This document shows positions 42,139-51,046 of a stretch of 58,870 bases of DNA, in pieces; the first letter of the stretch is position 1, and the number at the start of each line of letters is the position of its first letter. The translations under genes and the position numbers were made by a program. The notes beneath the pieces are model-generated. The model was not told the origin of the DNA and did not search any database. It saw only the letters and a list, made by a program, of their open reading frames with translations. The stretch covers positions 1 through 58,870 of the forward strand of contig CAVISR010000001.1 in the NCBI GenBank assembly GCA_963645405.1. The letters run 5' to 3'. Source of the DNA: Acutalibacteraceae bacterium. GTDB lineage: Bacteria; Bacteroidota; Bacteroidia; Bacteroidales; Bacteroidaceae.

Positions 42139-44196
42139 ATGAAAACAAAATCAATCATATTGTCAGGCTTGCTCCTTGCGTCACTTGGAGCTGCCACTAC
42201 TTCATGCGATGATATGCTTAATGTTGACGACGAGTTGCATACAACCAATCTTGCACCTCAGGATACAGTATATCAGGTGATGGGTATTCTCAATCGCATG
42301 CAGAGTCTGGTTGACCGTACTGTGTTGCTTGGTGAACTTCGTGCTGACCTCGTTGACCTCAACGAGGCTGTTGCGAGTACATCACTCCAGGAAATCATGG
42401 ATAACAATATATCAACCGACAACGAATACAACTCTATCTCTGACTACTATTCAGTGATAAATGCTTGTAACGTTTACCTTGCATACGTTGACTCAAACTA
42501 TGTTGAGCACAACAGAAAGAAGTATGAGAAGGAAATCCAGGCAGTGAAGACCTATAGAGCTTGGACATATCTTGAAATGGCAAAGGTCTACGGACGTGTT
42601 CCTTTCGTTACTGAGCCGGTACTTACTTCTGTAGAGGCAGACAAGATTGTAGCTTCAACTACCAATCGTGCCGACATGAATGAAATCTGTACTTATTTCA
42701 TCAACGAACTGCTCCCTTATGTGCAGAAGTCTAGTCCTGTTAGTGTACCAAACTATGGCGTAGATGGTTATCGCAGCCAGACTTTCTTCATTCCTGTTCG
42801 TCTGATGGTAGCAGAGCTCTATCTTTGGAGAGGTAACTATACTCATAATACATCCGATTTCACAAATGCCTGCACGTATTATTTTGACTATATAAATACA
42901 GTCAATAACGTTGTTACAACAGGAACAGCGAGCGTAAAGTGGAATAATAACACTATGCGTCATTCTTCAGACTCTTACTCGACGAATTTCACAACTGCAG
43001 ACACCATCACTATCATCCCAATGGATACATGTGCGTATGATGGAACATGGAGTCAACTCTATGCAATGTTCAATTCACAGTATGAGAACAATTACTATGT
43101 GCCTATCGTTCCGTCACAGCGTATCCGTGAAATCTCTGGTGCGCAGATCAACTGTGTTTATTCAGAGATAAACAATCAGCGTGATACAACGTATAGCACA
43201 TCAAAGATTGAATGGGAAGACTCAATGAAGATGGGTGACCTTCGTCTTGATGCTATCTACAACCGTTCAGCTGTGAGCAACATGTATACTTCTCAGTACA
43301 GTCAGGACCGTCAGCACATCATGAAGTACGCAAAAAGTTCTTCAAACTATGGCTCTGACCAGAAGCTGAAGTCTTACACAGTATATCGTAAGAATATTGT
43401 TTGGCTGCACTTTGCAGAGGCACTTAACCGTGCTGGTTTCCCTCAGACAGCATTCGCTATTCTGAAGTATGGCTTGACCCAGGAAAACATGTCTAATTAT
43501 GTGTCAGAAGCCGAACGTACCAATCTCAGAAAGATTCCTTCTTATATAAAAGGAAATATCTCAAGTTGGGATTATGATGATTTTGTAACAATACATTCAT
43601 CCAATTACGACAGAACGAGCAAACTTGCCAATACTATTGGTATACACTCACGTGGATCCGGTGATTCTGAATACAACAAGTACTATGCATTGTCAAACGA
43701 TACAGCTGTATGGAATCCTGTAGAACGACTTGAGTATGTAAAGGATTCCTTGGCAGACCTTGCAACTCTTGCACGTTCTGAAGGTGTGTACACTGAGGAT
43801 ACAACTTATGTAGTGTATGATAGCTTGGGCAATGCCATGACAGTATCCTCTTACCATTATGAATTTGAATCGGATTCATTGCGTGAGGCTTACATAGAAG
43901 CAAATATTGCTGCAGTTAACGCCGAGACTGCTTGGAAAGAAGCAGATATCGCAGCTTATCAGTCGTGCCTTCCAGGATGGCAGGAAGAAGTTGCCCAGAA
44001 GATTCTTGACGAGGAAGCTCTTGAAGGTGCGTTTGAGGGACAGCGTTTCTACGACCTGATGCGTTTCGCAATGTACACAGGCGATGCCGACTATATTGCA
44101 AAGCAGGTTATCAAGCGCAAGGGCTCAGACACAACTGACCCTCGTGGTGAAACTCTCCGTGGAGGTAACTGGTATCTGCCACTGCCTACTAAGTAA
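42139..44196 (+). CDS. SusD/RagB-family lipoprotein (pair 2)
   Basis: The ATG at 42139 begins MKTKSIILSGLLLASLGAATTSC, with a lipobox. The C-terminal motif EEALEGAFEGQRFYDLMRFA is SusD-like. Confidence 0.88.
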   Translation: MKTKSIILSGLLLASLGAATTSCDDMLNVDDELHTTNLAPQDTVYQVMGILNRMQSLVDRTVLLGELRADLVDLNEAVASTSLQEIMDNNISTDNEYNSISDYYSVINACNVYLAYVDSNYVEHNRKKYEKEIQAVKTYRAWTYLEMAKVYGRVPFVTEPVLTSVEADKIVASTTNRADMNEICTYFINELLPYVQKSSPVSVPNYGVDGYRSQTFFIPVRLMVAELYLWRGNYTHNTSDFTNACTYYFDYINTVNNVVTTGTASVKWNNNTMRHSSDSYSTNFTTADTITIIPMDTCAYDGTWSQLYAMFNSQYENNYYVPIVPSQRIREISGAQINCVYSEINNQRDTTYSTSKIEWEDSMKMGDLRLDAIYNRSAVSNMYTSQYSQDRQHIMKYAKSSSNYGSDQKLKSYTVYRKNIVWLHFAEALNRAGFPQTAFAILKYGLTQENMSNYVSEAERTNLRKIPSYIKGNISSWDYDDFVTIHSSNYDRTSKLANTIGIHSRGSGDSEYNKYYALSNDTAVWNPVERLEYVKDSLADLATLARSEGVYTEDTTYVVYDSLGNAMTVSSYHYEFESDSLREAYIEANIAAVNAETAWKEADIAAYQSCLPGWQEEVAQKILDEEALEGAFEGQRFYDLMRFAMYTGDADYIAKQVIKRKGSDTTDPRGETLRGGNWYLPLPTK

Positions 44197-44227
44197 GGAT
44201 TGGGTGATACTGATTATCTGACTGTAT

Positions 44228-44265
44228 GGGAGAGGGGCGCTTGTCGTCCCTCTCTTTCTGTTTTA
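44228..44265 (+). terminator. Rho-independent terminator after susD2
   Basis: GGGAGAGGG at 44228-44236 pairs with CCCTCTCTT at 44248-44256, with inner pairs C38-G46 and G39-C45. TCTGTTTT follows. Confidence 0.6.
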
Positions 44266-44368
44266 TGGCCGGTTCTTCAGAAATTCGTCATGTGTGCAAT
44301 CCCGTGTATTGCAAACGAAGGTTTCTCCTTCAAAAAGGCATCCGCCATTTATTTTCTTAGCTATTTAT

Positions 44369-44399
44369 TTTGTCAACTGAATGAAATGATGTAATTTTG
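44369..44399 (+). promoter_or_regulatory. Promoter of the leu operon: -33 TTTG, 19-nt spacer, -7 TAATTTTG
   Basis: TTTG at 44369-44372 and TAATTTTG at 44392-44399. Confidence 0.6.
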
Positions 44400-44426
44400 C
44401 AGTCGATATCATAGAGGGTATATATT

Positions 44427-44501
44427 ATGAAGTCTATTGGCATTATCAACATTATTCTATCACTACGACTTAGTAAGCTCGGGGTGAGAGAGGCTGTGTG
44501 A
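44427..44501 (+). CDS. Candidate leu-operon leader peptide (24 aa, 5 Ile and 4 Leu)
   Basis: Translated by hand: MKSIGIINIILSLRLSKLGVREAV. GAGGG lies 8 nt upstream of the ATG. The ORF sits between the promoter and the attenuator terminator. Confidence 0.45.
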   Translation: MKSIGIINIILSLRLSKLGVREAV

Positions 44502-44545
44502 TAAATTGAGATGTTTTCAAGACATTCATGTAGAGATAAATTAAG

Positions 44546-44583
44546 CCTTTCTTGCTCCGAGCGAGAGAGGTTTTTGTTTTTTG
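44546..44583 (+). terminator. Intrinsic terminator (attenuator) in the leu leader
   Basis: CCTTTCTTGC at 44546-44555 pairs with GCGAGAGAGG at 44561-44570 (10 bp, 2 G-U) around a 5-nt loop. TTTTTGTTTTTTG follows. It lies about 175 nt before the leuA ATG. Confidence 0.65.
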
Positions 44584-44757
44584 TATGGCAATGTTTCGAG
44601 TGTTGTGTATAAGGACTCCGGGCGCTGCGTATAAGGACATTGAACGGACGATTGTTGGATTGATTATAAGAAGGCAATTGCTGGATACATTATTATAATA
44701 CGATTGGATAGAACATTGGAATACGATAGGTTAGATTATTAAAATACGAAATATACG

Positions 44758-46257
44758 ATGGAACGATTATTTATTTTTGACACTACATTGAGGGACGGTG
44801 AACAAGTTCCCGGATGCCAGTTGAACACTATTGAGAAGATTCAGGTGGCAAAGCAGCTTGAGTTGCTCGGTGTAGATGTTATTGAGGCTGGATTCCCGAT
44901 ATCAAGCCCGGGTGATTACAACTCTGTCATTGAAATCTCAAAGGCAGTTACGTGGCCTACCATCTGTGCGCTGACACGTGCAGTGGAGAAGGATATCGAT
45001 GTGGCAGTGGAGTCACTCCAATATGCAAAGAGAAAGAGAATCCACACAGGAATCGGTACGAGTGATTACCATATCAAGTACAAGTTCAACAGCAATAGAG
45101 AGGAGATTATCGAACGTGCTGTGGCTGCAGTTAAGTACGCCCGTCGTTTCGTGGACGACGTTGAGTTCTATGCCGAGGATGCAGGACGTACCGACAATGA
45201 GTACCTTGCCCGCGTGATTGAGGCTGTTACAAAAGCAGGAGCCACAGTGTGCAACATCCCCGACACCACAGGCTTCCGCATACCTGAGGAGTATCAGGAG
45301 AAGATAAAGTACTTGTACGACCATGTCGATGCATTTGCTGCAGGCAAGTCAATCCTGTCCACCCACTGTCATAATGACCTCGGAATGGCGACAGCCAATA
45401 CTGTTGCTGGAGTGATGGGCGGTGCACGCCAAGTGGAAGTCACCATCAACGGAATTGGCGAGCGTGCCGGAAACACTTCCCTTGAGGAGATTGCCATGAT
45501 ATTCAAGACCCATCCCGACCTTGGAATCGAGACAAACATCAATACGACCAAGATATTCCCTACGAGCCGCATGGTGTCAAGCCTCATGAACATGCCTGTC
45601 CAGCCCAATAAGGCGATTGTCGGTCGCAATGCCTTTGCCCATTCATCGGGAATCCATCAGGATGGCGTGCTGAAGAATGCGTCAACCTATGAAATCATGG
45701 ACCCGAAGGATGTGGGAATCGATGATGCATCAATCGTGCTCACTGCGCGCTCAGGCCGTGCTGCATTGAAGTACAGACTCCATATCAATGGCGTGGATGT
45801 GAGCGATGAGAAACTCGACAAGGTATATCAGGACTTCTTGGTTCTTGCCGACAAGAAGAAAGAGGTTACGGATGACGACATCCTTGTACTTGCAGGCGCC
45901 GACCGTTCTGCTGCCCATAACATCCAGCTCGATTACCTCCAGGTGACAACAGGCAAGGGCGTCCGCTCAGTGGCAAGCATCGGTTTGCAGATTGCAAAGG
46001 AACACTTCGAGGCAGCTGCATCAGGCAACGGACCTGTCGATGCTGCTATCAAGGCATTGAAGAGCATTGTCAAGCGTGAGATGACCCTGAGGGAATTCAC
46101 CATACAGGCAATATCCAAAGGCTCCGACGACCTTGGCAAGGTACACATGCAGGTTGAGTACAATGGACATGTATACTATGGATTCGGTGCAAACACCGAT
46201 ATAGTGACAGCTTCCGTTGAGGCATATATCGACTGTATCAATAAGTTCAAGGACTAA
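44758..46257 (+). CDS. leuA: 2-isopropylmalate synthase
   Basis: 499 aa, [22 protein letters not shown]...[13 protein letters not shown]..., with a C-terminal LeuA-dimer-type domain. Confidence 0.93.
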
Positions 46258-46261
46258 GCTG

Positions 46262-46348
46262 CAGTGGCGCGACAGAGATTACAACAGCAACAGTGACGCA
46301 ACAGAGTGCACAACAGCAACAGTGGCTCGACAGAGAATAAGTATAGAA
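46262..46348. repeat. Three tandem 29-bp units in the leuA-leuC spacer
   Basis: CAGTGGCGCGACAGAGATTACAACAGCAA at 46262-46290, CAGTGACGCAACAGAGTGCACAACAGCAA at 46291-46319, and a degenerate third unit at 46320-46348. Confidence 0.8.
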
Positions 46349-46369
46349 ACAACATTATAGGTAAGACAG

Positions 46370-47758
46370 ATGAATACATTATTTGATAAGATTTGGGACG
46401 CACACGTAGTGCAGAAGGTGGAAGATGGCCCCACCCAATTATATATAGACCGCCTGTATGCCCATGAGGTAACCAGTCCCCAGGCATTCGACACATTGCG
46501 CGACAAGGGACTGAAAGTCTTTCGTCCCGACCATGTCGTGGCAATGCCCGACCACAACACACCAAGCGACCAGCAGGACCATATCGATGACCCGATAGGA
46601 CGCAAGCAGGTGGAAACTTTGAAGAAGAACTGCGAAGAGTTCGGCATCAAGCACTTTGCCATGGGAACCAAGGACAACGGCATCATCCATGTTGTCGGAC
46701 CCGAGAAGGCATTGTCATTGCCGGGCATGACCATCGTGTGTGGTGATTCCCACACAAGCACCCACGGAGCAGTCGGAGCAATCGCAATGGGTATCGGTAC
46801 GTCCGAGGTTGCCGAGGTATTGGCAAGCCAGTGCATCCTGCAGTCCAAGCCAAAGACCATGAGGATAAATATCGAAGGCAAGCTCCATCCTGGAGTCACT
46901 GCCAAGGACGTGGCACTCTACATCATGTCGCAGATGACCACCTCAGGCGCTACTGGCTATGCAGTGGAATATGCAGGTAGTGTGGTCCGTGACATGAGCA
47001 TGGAAGGACGTCTCACACTTTCCAACCTCTCCATTGAGATGGGAAGCCGGGCTGGTATAATCGCTCCCGACGAGACCACCTTTGCTTACCTCAAGGGCCG
47101 TGAATATGCACCTAAGGGTGCTGACTGGGACAAGGCAGTGGAGGAATGGAAGAAGTTGAAGAGCGACGACGATGCCGTGTTCGACAAGGAAGTGACTTAC
47201 AGCGCTGACGACATAGCTCCACGCATCACCTACGGAACCAATCCTGGAGCAGGAATTGCCATCGACGGTTGCATCCCTGCACTTGAGGATATCCCGGAGG
47301 CAAAGCGTCCGCAGTTCCTCGGAATGCTTGAATACATGCAGTTCACTCCCGGGCAGAAACTGGAGGGGACACCTGTCGACTATTGCTTCCTTGGTGCATG
47401 CACCAACGGACGTATCGAGGACTTCCGTGCCTTTGCCAGTGTGGTCAAGGGCAAGAAGAAAGCCGACAATGTGGTTGCATGGATAGTTCCGGGCAGTTGG
47501 CTCGTTCGCCAGCAGATTATCGACGAGGGAATCGACAAGATTCTTGAGGAGGCTGGCTTCGAACTGCGTTTGCCTTCATGCTCGTCTTGTCTTGCAATGA
47601 ACCCCGACAAGGTGCCGGCAGGCAAACTGAGCATATCCACGAGCAACCGTAACTTCGTGGGACGTCAGGGACCGGGTGCACGCACCGTACTGGCTTCACC
47701 GTTGGTTGTGGCAGCCAGTGCCATCACAGGTAAGATAACAGATCCAAGAAAACTCTAA
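46370..47758 (+). CDS. leuC: 3-isopropylmalate dehydratase large subunit
   Basis: 462 aa, aconitase family ([12 protein letters not shown]..., [18 protein letters not shown]). Confidence 0.95.
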
Positions 47759-47768
47759 TTCAAAAGAC

Positions 47769-48398
47769 ATGGCTAAGCAGAAATTCAATATAATTCAGTC
47801 GACTTGTATTCCCATAGCGATTGACAATTGCAATACAGATTTGATTATTCCGGCAAGATACCTTGCCAGTACAACCCGCGACCCCAAGTTCTTTGGCGAT
47901 GCGTTCATGCACGACCTCCGTTATGACGCCCAGGGAAACAAGGTCGGGGACTTCGTGATGAACAAGCCCGAATACAGTGAGGCACCCCGTCTTGGCGTGC
48001 ACGAAATCATTGTGGGCGGACAGAACTGGGGCTCAGGCTCGAGCCGTGAACATGCGGCATGGGCTATTGCCGGCTACGGAGTGCGCGTGGTCATTTCGTC
48101 CAGCTTTGCCGACATCCACCGCAACAACTTGCTCAATTGCTTCGTGCTTCCAGTGGTAGTCAGCCCGGAGTTCCAGAAAGAACTCTTTGCCAGCATCGCG
48201 GCAAATCCACAGGCAGAAGTCAAGGTAGATGTGCCCAACCAGACAGTGACCAACCTGGCTACCGGACACAGCGAGACATTCGAGATAAACTCCTACAAGA
48301 AGTATTGTCTGATGAATGCGTTTGATGATATCGACTTCTTGCTGGAGAATAAAGACAAGATAGAGGCTTACGAACAGAAGCAATGTCAGAAAAGATAA
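47769..48398 (+). CDS. leuD: 3-isopropylmalate dehydratase small subunit
   Basis: 209 aa (GGQNWGSGSSREHAAWAI), directly after leuC. Confidence 0.93.
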   Translation: MAKQKFNIIQSTCIPIAIDNCNTDLIIPARYLASTTRDPKFFGDAFMHDLRYDAQGNKVGDFVMNKPEYSEAPRLGVHEIIVGGQNWGSGSSREHAAWAIAGYGVRVVISSSFADIHRNNLLNCFVLPVVVSPEFQKELFASIAANPQAEVKVDVPNQTVTNLATGHSETFEINSYKKYCLMNAFDDIDFLLENKDKIEAYEQKQCQKR

Positions 48399-49909
48399 TT
48401 GAAATAATGGATACGACACTCCGCGACGGTGAACAGACCAACGGAGTGTCTTTCGTACCCCACGAGAAACTCATTGTGGCACGCATGCTGCTTCAGGACC
48501 TGAAAGTCGACCGCATTGAAGTGGCATCTGCACGCGTGTCGGATGGCGAGAAGGAAGCTGTCACCAGTATATGCAAGTGGGCACTCTCGGCAGGATTGCT
48601 CGACCGGGTGGAAGTCCTTGGCTTCGTCGACGGCAAGCTGTCGCTCGACTGGATAAACGACTGCGGATGCAAGGTCATCAACCTGCTTTGCAAGGGAAGC
48701 GAGAAACATTGCACCTACCAGCTGAAGAAGACACTCGACCAGCATCTCTCCGACATCAAGCACTCCATCGAGTATGCCCATCAGCTTGGCATAGGAGTCA
48801 ACGTGTATCTCGAGGACTGGAGCAACGGCATGAAGGACAGTCCCGACTATGTGTTCAAGTTCGTTGACGCACTGAAGGACTGTGGCATCCGCCGGTTCAT
48901 GCTGCCCGACACCTTGGGTGTGCTCAATCCGTTGACCACCCAGAAGTACATGCACCAGATGCTTGAATGGTTTCCGTCCCTCCACTTCGACTTCCATGCA
49001 CACAACGACTATGACTTGGCAACAGCCAATGTGATGTATGCAGTGCTTGAAGGATGTACGGGTGTACACACGTCAATCAACGGACTTGGTGAGCGTGCAG
49101 GCAACGCACCGTTGAGCAGCGTGCAGGCAATATTGGCAGACCAGCTTGGCATTGCCACCAACATACAGGAGGAGAAGCTCAATGAGGCAGGCAGGCTTAT
49201 CGAGAGCTACTCAGGCATTGCCGTTCCGTCGAACATGCCAATCATCGGCGAGAATGTGTTCACCCAGGTTGCAGGCGTTCATGCCGACGGCGACAACAAG
49301 AACAATCTCTACTGCAACGGACTCATCCCCGAACGGTTCGGACGCAAACGCGAATATGCGTTGGGCAAGAACAGCGGCAAGGCAAACATACTTCAGAACC
49401 TGAAGGAACTCGGACTCGAACTGACACCCGAGCAGACACGACGTGTCACCGACCGCATCATCGAGCTTGGCGACAAGAAACAGCTCGTGACCCAGGAGGA
49501 ACTTCCTTACATAGTGAATGATGTGCTGAAGCACACAACGCTCGACGAGAAGATAAAGCTGCTCAGCTACATGGTCAGCACAGCCTATGGACTGAAGCCT
49601 ATGGCAAGTGTGAAGCTCGAAGTCAATGGCGAGGTCTACGAGGAATCGGCAATGGGCGACGGTATGTACGATGCGTTTGTACGTTCCGTCCGTCACATCT
49701 ATCGCGACAAGCTCCACCGCAAGTTCCCTTGGCTCACCAACTATGTGGTACGCATACCGCCAGGCGGACGCACCGATGCCTTGGTACAGACCACCATCTC
49801 GTGGATCTACAACGACAAGACTTACCGTACCCATGCGCTTGATGCAGACCAGACAGATGCGGCCATCAAGGCAACCATCAAGATGCTCAACCTCATAAAT
49901 GAGGAGTAA
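48383..49909 (+). CDS. Second isopropylmalate/citramalate synthase family enzyme, probably (R)-citramalate synthase
   Basis: 508 aa, [17 protein letters not shown]...HAHNDYDLATAN..., with a C-terminal regulatory domain. It overlaps leuD by 16 nt. The CimA assignment is an inference. Confidence 0.8.
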   Translation: MSEKIIEIMDTTLRDGEQTNGVSFVPHEKLIVARMLLQDLKVDRIEVASARVSDGEKEAVTSICKWALSAGLLDRVEVLGFVDGKLSLDWINDCGCKVINLLCKGSEKHCTYQLKKTLDQHLSDIKHSIEYAHQLGIGVNVYLEDWSNGMKDSPDYVFKFVDALKDCGIRRFMLPDTLGVLNPLTTQKYMHQMLEWFPSLHFDFHAHNDYDLATANVMYAVLEGCTGVHTSINGLGERAGNAPLSSVQAILADQLGIATNIQEEKLNEAGRLIESYSGIAVPSNMPIIGENVFTQVAGVHADGDNKNNLYCNGLIPERFGRKREYALGKNSGKANILQNLKELGLELTPEQTRRVTDRIIELGDKKQLVTQEELPYIVNDVLKHTTLDEKIKLLSYMVSTAYGLKPMASVKLEVNGEVYEESAMGDGMYDAFVRSVRHIYRDKLHRKFPWLTNYVVRIPPGGRTDALVQTTISWIYNDKTYRTHALDADQTDAAIKATIKMLNLINEE

Positions 49910-49984
49910 GCGTGCAGTTGCCGGCAGACAATGAGAATAAGAACAACGAAAGGACAAAGAACATATTAAAAACAAAACACAGAT

Positions 49985-51046
49985 ATGAAACTGAAAATAG
50001 CAGTTCTGGCAGGTGACGGTATCGGGCCAGAAATCATGGAACAGGGCGTCAATGTGATGAATGCCGTGTGCGAGAAGTTCGGACATGAGGTGACCTACAA
50101 GGAAGCATTGTGCGGAGCACATGCCATCGATGAAGTGGGCGACCCGTTCCCGGAAGAGACATTCCAGACATGTATGGATGCTGATGCAGTGCTTTTCGCA
50201 TCAGTCGGCGACCCTAAGTTCGACAACAATCCCAATGCAAAGGTGCGTCCCGAGCAGGGCTTGCTTGCCATGCGCAAGAAACTCGGACTCTACGCCAACA
50301 TACGTCCGGTAGAGACCTTCGATTGCCTCGTCCACAAGTCTCCGTTGAAAGACGAACTTGTGCGTGGCGCAGACTTCATCTGCATCCGCGAGTTGACAGG
50401 CGGTATGTATTTCGGCGAGAAGTACGAAGACGACGAGAAGGCTTACGACACCGACTACTACACACGTCCTGAGATTGAACGAATCTTGCGCGTGGGCTAC
50501 AGCTATGCAATGCGTCGCAACAAGCACCTCACAGTGGTCGACAAGGCAAATGTACTTGCATCAAGCCGTTTGTGGCGCAAGGTTGCCCAGGCAATTGCAC
50601 CCGAATATCCGGAAGTGAAGACCGATTTCATGTATGTCGACAATGCAGCCATGCGAATGATTCAGGAACCAAAGTTCTTCGATGTGATGGTTACAGAGAA
50701 CACCTTCGGCGACATCCTTACCGACGAGGGCAGCTGCATCACCGGCTCGATGGGACTTCTCCCGTCAGCAAGTACAGGCGAACATACACCGGTGTTCGAG
50801 CCGATTCACGGTTCTTGGCCACAGGCAAAGGGTTTGAACATCGCCAACCCATTGGCTCAGATTTTGTCAGTAGCCATGTTGTTTGAGTACTTCGACCTCA
50901 AGGATGAGGGCAGTCTCATTCGCAAGGCAGTCAATGCAAGCCTCGATGCCAACGTACGCACACCCGAGATCCAGGTTGAAGGTGGCGCAAAGTACGGCAC
51001 CAAGGAAGTAGGACAATGGATTGTTGATTACATCAAGAAAGCATAG
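49985..51046 (+). CDS. leuB: 3-isopropylmalate dehydrogenase
   Basis: 353 aa, [17 protein letters not shown]...[25 protein letters not shown]... Confidence 0.95.

Follow-up and report, generated by a model that had tools for sequence, protein, structure and literature searches.

A predicted isoleucine- and leucine-sensing leader-peptide attenuator before the leuA-leuC-leuD-cimA-leuB operon of a Prevotella-like bacterium, with relatives across Bacteroidales

In enterobacteria, the codon CUA has a regulatory role in the leu leader of Salmonella, and the leader of the E. coli ilvGMEDA operon (ilvL) senses several amino acids through mixed codons matching the products of the operon. Bacteroidota, for their part, seldom use Shine-Dalgarno pairing. 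Attenuators are said to have been predicted in Bacteroidetes by Vitreschak et al. in FEMS Microbiol Lett in 2004 and, reportedly, also by Lopatovskaya et al. in Mol Biol in 2010. The Bacteroid-trp motif (RF01692) is presumably of the leader-peptide type and holds an ORF with Trp codons and a terminator.

Weinberg et al. (2010, PMC2864571) present this motif among the cis-regulatory ones of Bacteroidetes. In Flavobacterium psychrophilum, leader-peptide attenuation elements of ilvE and hisG are listed along with RNA-seq-mapped transcripts (Guerin et al. 2021, PMC9723704, Table S7). The ilvE case combines a sequence prediction with a transcript map, and the mechanism proposed there is identical to the one proposed below (PMC9723704). 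In B. thetaiotaomicron, only short ORFs "reminiscent of leader peptides" have been described (Ryan et al. 2020, PMC7366714). A literature search returned no experimental study of the leu leader element considered here and none at the bench in Bacteroidales. The novelty that a sequence-only reading of this locus had claimed is nevertheless overstated, as leader-peptide attenuators had already been predicted in Bacteroidota, namely Bacteroid-trp and the ilvE and hisG elements of F. psychrophilum. That the leu leader element is real, widespread in Bacteroidales, uncatalogued and already anticipated for the phylum is well supported.

The window, i.e. the whole stretch of 58,870 nucleotides that was analysed, comes from a Prevotella-like rumen bacterium and carries the leader together with a leuA-leuCD-cimA-leuB operon on the + strand (44758 to 51046). 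The genes, assigned from NCBIfam matches, are leuA (44758-46257), leuC (46370-47758), leuD (47769-48398), a cimA-like gene (48383-49909) and leuB (49985-51046). The best model for the cimA-like gene is (R)-citramalate synthase, with an E value of 4.9e-189 and a score below the equivalog cut-off. Upstream of the leader lies a SusC/SusD pair ending with its own terminator at 44228-44256, so the leader opens a separate transcription unit. A promoter of the Bacteroidetes type is directly readable at 44369-44399 (+ strand), with a -33 TTTG at 44369-44372, a 19-nt spacer and the -7 box TAATTTTG at 44392-44399. Transcription probably starts near 44405, about 5-8 nt past the TAATTTTG box, and the leader ATG is found 27 nt downstream of the -7 box. 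Among 37 related leaders, 34 likewise have a TAnnTTTG box 10-44 nt (median 24) 5' of their ATG, as compared with 3.6% of random 70-nt windows containing such a box. The promoter, the leader ORF and the terminator ahead of leuA are thus all present where the sequence-only reading had placed them, and the leuA start at 44758 agrees with its distance of about 175 nt past the terminator. This terminator-to-leuA spacer (44584-44757), counted as 182 nt for comparison with other loci, is longer than the 14-127 nt found in 36 relatives, the closest relative (L001) having 62 nt. AATACGA repeats sit in the extra spacer sequence.

The leader ORF (44427 to 44501, + strand) consists of 24 codons from the ATG at 44427 and a TGA at 44499-44501, and encodes the peptide MKSIGIINIILSLRLSKLGVREAV. 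It contains five Ile codons (four ATT and one ATC) and four Leu codons (two CTA, one CTT and one CTC). The count of eight Ile or Leu residues among codons 4-15 proposed earlier is correct, with five Ile and three Leu. CUA accounts for 1.8% of Leu codons genome-wide (773 long ORFs) and for none of the 155 Leu codons in the genes of the leu operon, as against two of the four in the leader, whereas AUU represents four of the five leader Ile codons versus 24% genome-wide; the leader Arg codon is the rare CGA. These rare codons overlap a segment engaged in RNA pairing (region 1, below), which could partly account for the codon choice.

The leader RNA is organized in segments able to pair in mutually exclusive ways, all on the + strand. 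Region 1 (44455-44471), delineated from minimum-free-energy folds, spans codons 10-15 (..U CUA UCA CUA CGA CUU) and acts in these folds as an anti-antiterminator. Region 2 (44475-44494, GCUCGGGGUGAGAGAGGC) is the 5' strand of the antiterminator and ends 4 nt 5' of the leader stop. Region 3 (44545-44562, GCCUUUCUUGCUCCGAGC) comprises the 5' arm and loop of the terminator and is common to antiterminator and terminator. The intrinsic terminator itself (44543-44583), identified both by a terminator scan and by the RNAalifold consensus, is a hairpin of 14 pairs (44543-44573) with a loop of 3 followed by the U tract TTTTTGTTTTTTG. The reported repeat is exact, GTGAGAGAGG at 44484-44493 being a 9/10 copy of GCGAGAGAGG at 44561-44570. 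From this repeat an antiterminator had been deduced, which does form in the folds and uses the terminator 5' arm, but extends over 18-19 bp instead of 10. For this helix (44476-44494 with 44545-44562) the duplex energy is -28.6 kcal/mol, versus -22.7 for the terminator. An additional 1:2 hairpin, absent from the earlier account, pairs 44455-44471 with 44475-44492 (duplex energy -13.7 kcal/mol) and makes the classical four-region layout complete. The 201-nt leader region folds with a z-score of -2.9 relative to shuffles, and this value, together with the recurrence of the arrangement in dozens of other genomes, places the leader RNA beyond chance.

These features are best explained by a classical ribosome-mediated transcription attenuator controlling leuA-leuC-leuD-cimA-leuB, a reading to which a probability of roughly 85% is assigned. 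As initially proposed from the letters of the locus, an Ile/Leu attenuator of this kind is backed by masked folds, covariation, ORF conservation and leader composition. The rare leader codons, the recurrent promoter and a further attenuator of like design in the genome (below) also speak for it. This mechanism presumes that the leader is translated, that the ribosome is coupled to RNA polymerase and that the operon actually responds to Ile and Leu. A ribosome would translate the 24-codon leader while RNA polymerase advances toward the terminator. With ample charged tRNA-Ile and tRNA-Leu, it would reach the UGA at 44499-44501 and cover region 2, leaving regions 3 and 4 to pair as a terminator, and transcription would end at the U tract before leuA. 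If Ile or Leu were short, the ribosome would be expected to stall on codons 6-15 (AUU AUC .. AUU AUU CUA .. CUA .. CUU) and to occupy region 1. Region 2 would then be free and, with region 4 still to be made, would form some 18 bp with region 3. This 2:3 helix would prevent formation of the terminator and let the operon be read through. Sensing of two amino acids fits the gene content, as LeuA starts leucine synthesis, the CimA-like enzyme leads to isoleucine via citramalate, and LeuCD and LeuB serve in both.

The two alternative folds called for by the earlier proposal were modelled with the ribosome represented as a plain footprint mask on the RNA before folding. A mask on the Ile/Leu codons makes the antiterminator the minimum-free-energy structure, whereas a mask at the stop codon covers region 2 and yields the terminator. 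The point at which the choice is made was imitated by an RNA ending short of region 4. Under the stall mask, 13 of 14 nt of region 3 are then paired with the 3' part of the leader, as against 0 nt when the ribosome is placed at the stop. The ribosome-free RNA folds into two hairpins, 1:2 and the terminator (3:4), whereas the equilibrium fold of a slightly shorter ribosome-free RNA is the antiterminator, i.e. read-through. As the antiterminator is stronger than either the terminator or the 1:2 hairpin and the ribosome-free folds disagree, the default state in the absence of translation is uncertain.

The same modelling was extended to 37 relatives. Under the stall mask, with the RNA ending before region 4, the 2:3 helix forms in 34 of the 37. 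The ribosome at the stop fully blocks this helix in 22, region 2 being incompletely covered in the 15 others. Folding of the full RNA with the ribosome in this position leaves the terminator intact in 35 of 37. For the full RNA under the stall mask, the equilibrium fold is the antiterminator in 19 of 37, whereas the terminator stays the minimum in 18, in which the switch must therefore be kinetic; equilibrium folding was judged to be the wrong test of a stall. On average, the 2:3 duplex energy is -18.8 kcal/mol, compared with -11.5 when region 2 is shuffled.

The distribution of the element was assessed on 80 loci of close LeuA relatives (82-93% identity) from rumen and gut Prevotellaceae and Bacteroidaceae. 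A conserved U-U mismatch hid most terminators of the relatives from a strict terminator scan, and an alignment and a covariance model (R1) were used instead. Full-length R1 matches lie before leuA at 41 of the 80 loci, four of which (L002, L039, L067 and L073) are outside its training set; a 42nd locus at 36 bits (L069) was left out of the count. The window scores 76.2 bits (E 1.9e-17) as one of the training sequences of the model, and the independent members are these four loci and the order-level loci L086-L134. Across the order, 149 genera from 148 family-level groups were sampled; R1 matches occur in 45 of these genera, and many genomes contain two. Conversely, 38 of the 80 LeuA loci are leaderless (e.g. 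L007, L010, L013, L014, L019 and L021). In these, a TAnnTTTG promoter stands 30-50 nt before leuA. The idea that leuA belongs there to a longer operon with a leader farther upstream was discarded, given this promoter distance and the unrelated upstream genes (e.g. DnaB). As about half of the nearest LeuA relatives lack a leader, this control is dispensable, and the pattern suggests that closely related species have repeatedly gained or lost the attenuator.

This patchy occurrence in about half of the close relatives, along with the terminator-leuA distance in the window exceeding that of its relatives, would suit a hairpin serving as an unregulated, leaky terminator or as an RNA-stabilising structure, perhaps at the end of a small RNA transcribed from the leader promoter, with an alternative pairing devoid of regulatory meaning. 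Such a role is nevertheless highly improbable, as the antiterminator and the terminator arm covary and are specifically complementary, and as the element, whether before leuA or ilvD, stands directly before branched-chain amino-acid biosynthesis genes in every case. Covariation was evaluated in an alignment of 30 leaders (A1) forming three sequence subgroups, among which regions 2, 3 and 4 vary jointly. Over the 30 sequences, the antiterminator helix is paired at 84.2% and its slid controls at 43-49%, and 7 of its pairs have undergone compensatory changes on both sides. The terminator is paired at 89.5% and its slid controls at 38-67%, with 6 pairs so changed. These controls do not fully remove the effect of shared ancestry. 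Column 157 of the alignment covaries with columns 101 and 194, its two partners, as fits a strand common to both helices. The covariation in relatives suggested earlier as a check is therefore found for terminator and antiterminator alike.

Homologous Ile/Leu-rich ORFs occupy the same place in at least 37 relatives. They measure 17-35 codons and keep the ATG and a stop near region 2, while their codons and the remainder of the peptide vary, freely so in the N-terminal half. Examples are MKSLNLLNGLIIIRLHGAGGSDLGAYIS, MKRSILHILSLNISLILLAMSGGGECRA in Phocaeicola coprophilus and MAIETLNISSIIIRLRLQYVGGSDEVCV in Segatella hominis. The conservation of the leader ORF, also put forward earlier as a check, is thus observed at the level of its Ile/Leu-rich character despite the variation of its codons. 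Towards its C-terminus (..GGS..C) the peptide is fairly conserved, and the trans-acting trp leader products reported for Sinorhizobium (PMC7298713) offer a precedent for a 24-residue hydrophobic peptide or a terminated leader RNA acting in trans, besides or instead of in cis. However, the conserved C-terminal residues coincide with region 2, whose nucleotides are constrained by pairing, and the window peptide differs at this place (LGVREAV) yet the RNA pairing is kept, the N-terminal half being free to change. A function in trans is accordingly considered very unlikely.

The composition of the leaders was compared with the operons that follow them, by counting residues in the best 10-residue window of each leader. 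The close-relative leaders, all before leuA (n=37), contain on average 3.2 Ile, 3.5 Leu and 0.1 Val. Across the order, leaders before leuA (n=24) contain 3.6 Ile, 4.0 Leu and 0.1 Val, versus 2.6 Ile, 2.9 Leu and 3.3 Val for homologous leaders before ilvD (n=22); the Mann-Whitney p value of 7.6e-9 overstates independence since the genomes are related, although each comes from a different family-level group. Among the order-level leuA leaders, 19 of 20 precede leuA-leuC-leuD-cimA, usually followed by leuB. The remaining one, with a lone leuA (L172 / L114, G115:C1:963854-972000) carries a Leu-only leader, MMYNSLLLDVLFLELLQSNE, with no Ile, a single and hence anecdotal case. The ilvD leaders matched by R1 are found at L094, L103-L107, L112, L113, L115-L127, L131 and L134, with MKNLISILVLIVVVVLLDTTR and MKLKLHTLITVVVVVVIASRMQ as examples. 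The suggestion that joint sensing of Ile and Leu suits an operon with leuA and a citramalate-synthase-like gene agrees with this tracking of operon content by leader composition. In addition, no IlvA regulatory domain of a biosynthetic threonine dehydratase was detected in the genome, which is 93% complete, a search that was likewise silent for the B. thetaiotaomicron control; this result fits a route to isoleucine via citramalate.

The sorting of composition by operon is the strongest argument for a signal read by a ribosome. It also bears on whether a protein, an uncharged tRNA or a metabolite could work the RNA switch, the ORF being incidental. From genus to genus, terminator and antiterminator show an unusual degree of sequence conservation (GCCUUUCUCACUUCC...GUGUGAAAGGC), which could mark a binding site. 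This strong conservation of the core can, however, be attributed to the fact that one segment must pair with two partners and overlaps the coding frame. A switch made of RNA only does not predict a Val content tracking ilvD versus leuA, nor an ORF that keeps its ATG, its Ile/Leu richness and the position of its stop while its codons vary. Furthermore, no T-box, riboswitch or other Rfam family was recognized: cmscan of 43500-45500 with E up to 10 gave five chance-level matches to unrelated families and none to RF00512 (Leu_leader), RF01743 (leu-phe leader) or RF00230 (T-box). An ORF-independent switch is therefore left with very little credence.

Taken across genomes, these leaders may form a single evolvable family of attenuators, a view somewhat favoured here. 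Its terminator/antiterminator core would be fixed in Bacteroidales and probably more widely in Bacteroidota, and its codon run would be rewritten for each operon (Ile+Leu for leuA-leuCD-cimA, Ile+Leu+Val for ilvD, Leu for a lone leuA), with free gain and loss between close species. In a phylum-wide sample, the weaker R1 matches are mostly driven by the terminator, yet they reveal other leaders. At the phylum-level loci L136, L149, L139 and L146, candidate leaders with runs such as ..YYWWWFS.. and ..NWWWWNS.. occur before trpE. An Ile-only candidate, MIKSNNIIIAIISIIAIQQ, precedes an IlvA-like gene, and ..YTYYYYLL.. stands before a phenylalanine hydroxylase-like gene. Ile runs were also noticed before ilvN-like genes in this sample.

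A weak R1 match also led to a second attenuator of the same design in the genome of the window (locus L082, contig C53:4406-4565, - strand). Its leader, MNSSFATYFYFYFYFGNE, alternates Phe and Tyr and is directly followed after the stop by GAGCGGGUAUU, a copy of the 3' arm of the terminator AAUCCCGCUCAGGAACGAGCGGGAUUUUUUU. The genes after it are a prephenate-dehydratase-like gene (pheA) and an aminotransferase. The ilvD gene of this genome (L135, C4:3993-5729, - strand) has no leader before it, its ATG being preceded at about 30 nt by a TTTG/TAATTTTG promoter alone, and the Bacteroid-trp motif was not found in the genome. A crude genome-wide scan for leaders returned only the leu and phe leaders, the other candidates having proved to be the ends of ordinary genes. 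With no leader before ilvD, leader-peptide control in this genome is seen at the leu and phe operons only.

Prevotella and Bacteroides, in which gene regulation is poorly charted, dominate the gut and the rumen, and the leu leader gives a testable rule for how they control the synthesis of leucine and isoleucine. It lends support to the idea that the operon, through its cimA-like gene, is a pathway to two products. The leader also offers a compact natural switch responsive to amino acids and usable for genetic tools in Bacteroidales, and a case in which the coupling of ribosome and polymerase can be tested in a phylum whose translation initiation is unusual. If the leaders do form one family with a rewritable codon run, they would be the first ribosome-sensing attenuators open to experiment in a phylum largely devoid of Shine-Dalgarno-led initiation, and would give direct access to the coupling of transcription and translation in gut Bacteroidales. 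The family could enter RNA-family databases, so that the short leader ORF would no longer be missed or mis-called. As the mechanism is a textbook one, the gain is in coverage and not in a new principle.

Among known systems, the enterobacterial leuL (RF00512) shares with the leu leader a short ORF, a run of regulatory codons, the rare CUA Leu codons, the 1:2, 2:3 and 3:4 layout, an intrinsic terminator before leuA and a ribosome that, at the stop, blocks the antiterminator (predicted in the present case). In contrast to leuL, with its four consecutive Leu codons, the leader described here mixes Ile and Leu codons and gives no RF00512 match. It is also preceded by a Bacteroidetes sigma-A promoter (TTTG / TAnnTTTG), and the operon includes a citramalate synthase, so that two pathways would be controlled. 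With respect to ilvL, the Val codons are absent (0.1 per 10-residue window), and the Val-containing ilvD leaders of Bacteroidales are the closer functional analogue. Bacteroid-trp and the leu leader are both cis-regulatory elements before amino-acid biosynthesis genes, whereas the amino acid and the sequence differ. The ilvE element of F. psychrophilum belongs to the same phylum and likewise has an Ile-rich ORF (..AUU AUU AUU CGC..) followed by branched-chain genes. Its terminators (AAGCCUUUCUCA...UGAGAAAGGCUUUUUU; PMC9723704) resemble those found here, with a common GCCUUUCUCA...UGAGAAAGGC look, whereas the order, the gene and the presence of tandem leader copies set it apart. Thus, the leu leader fits no curated family by its sequence, and its mechanism is that of the enterobacterial leu and ilv leaders.
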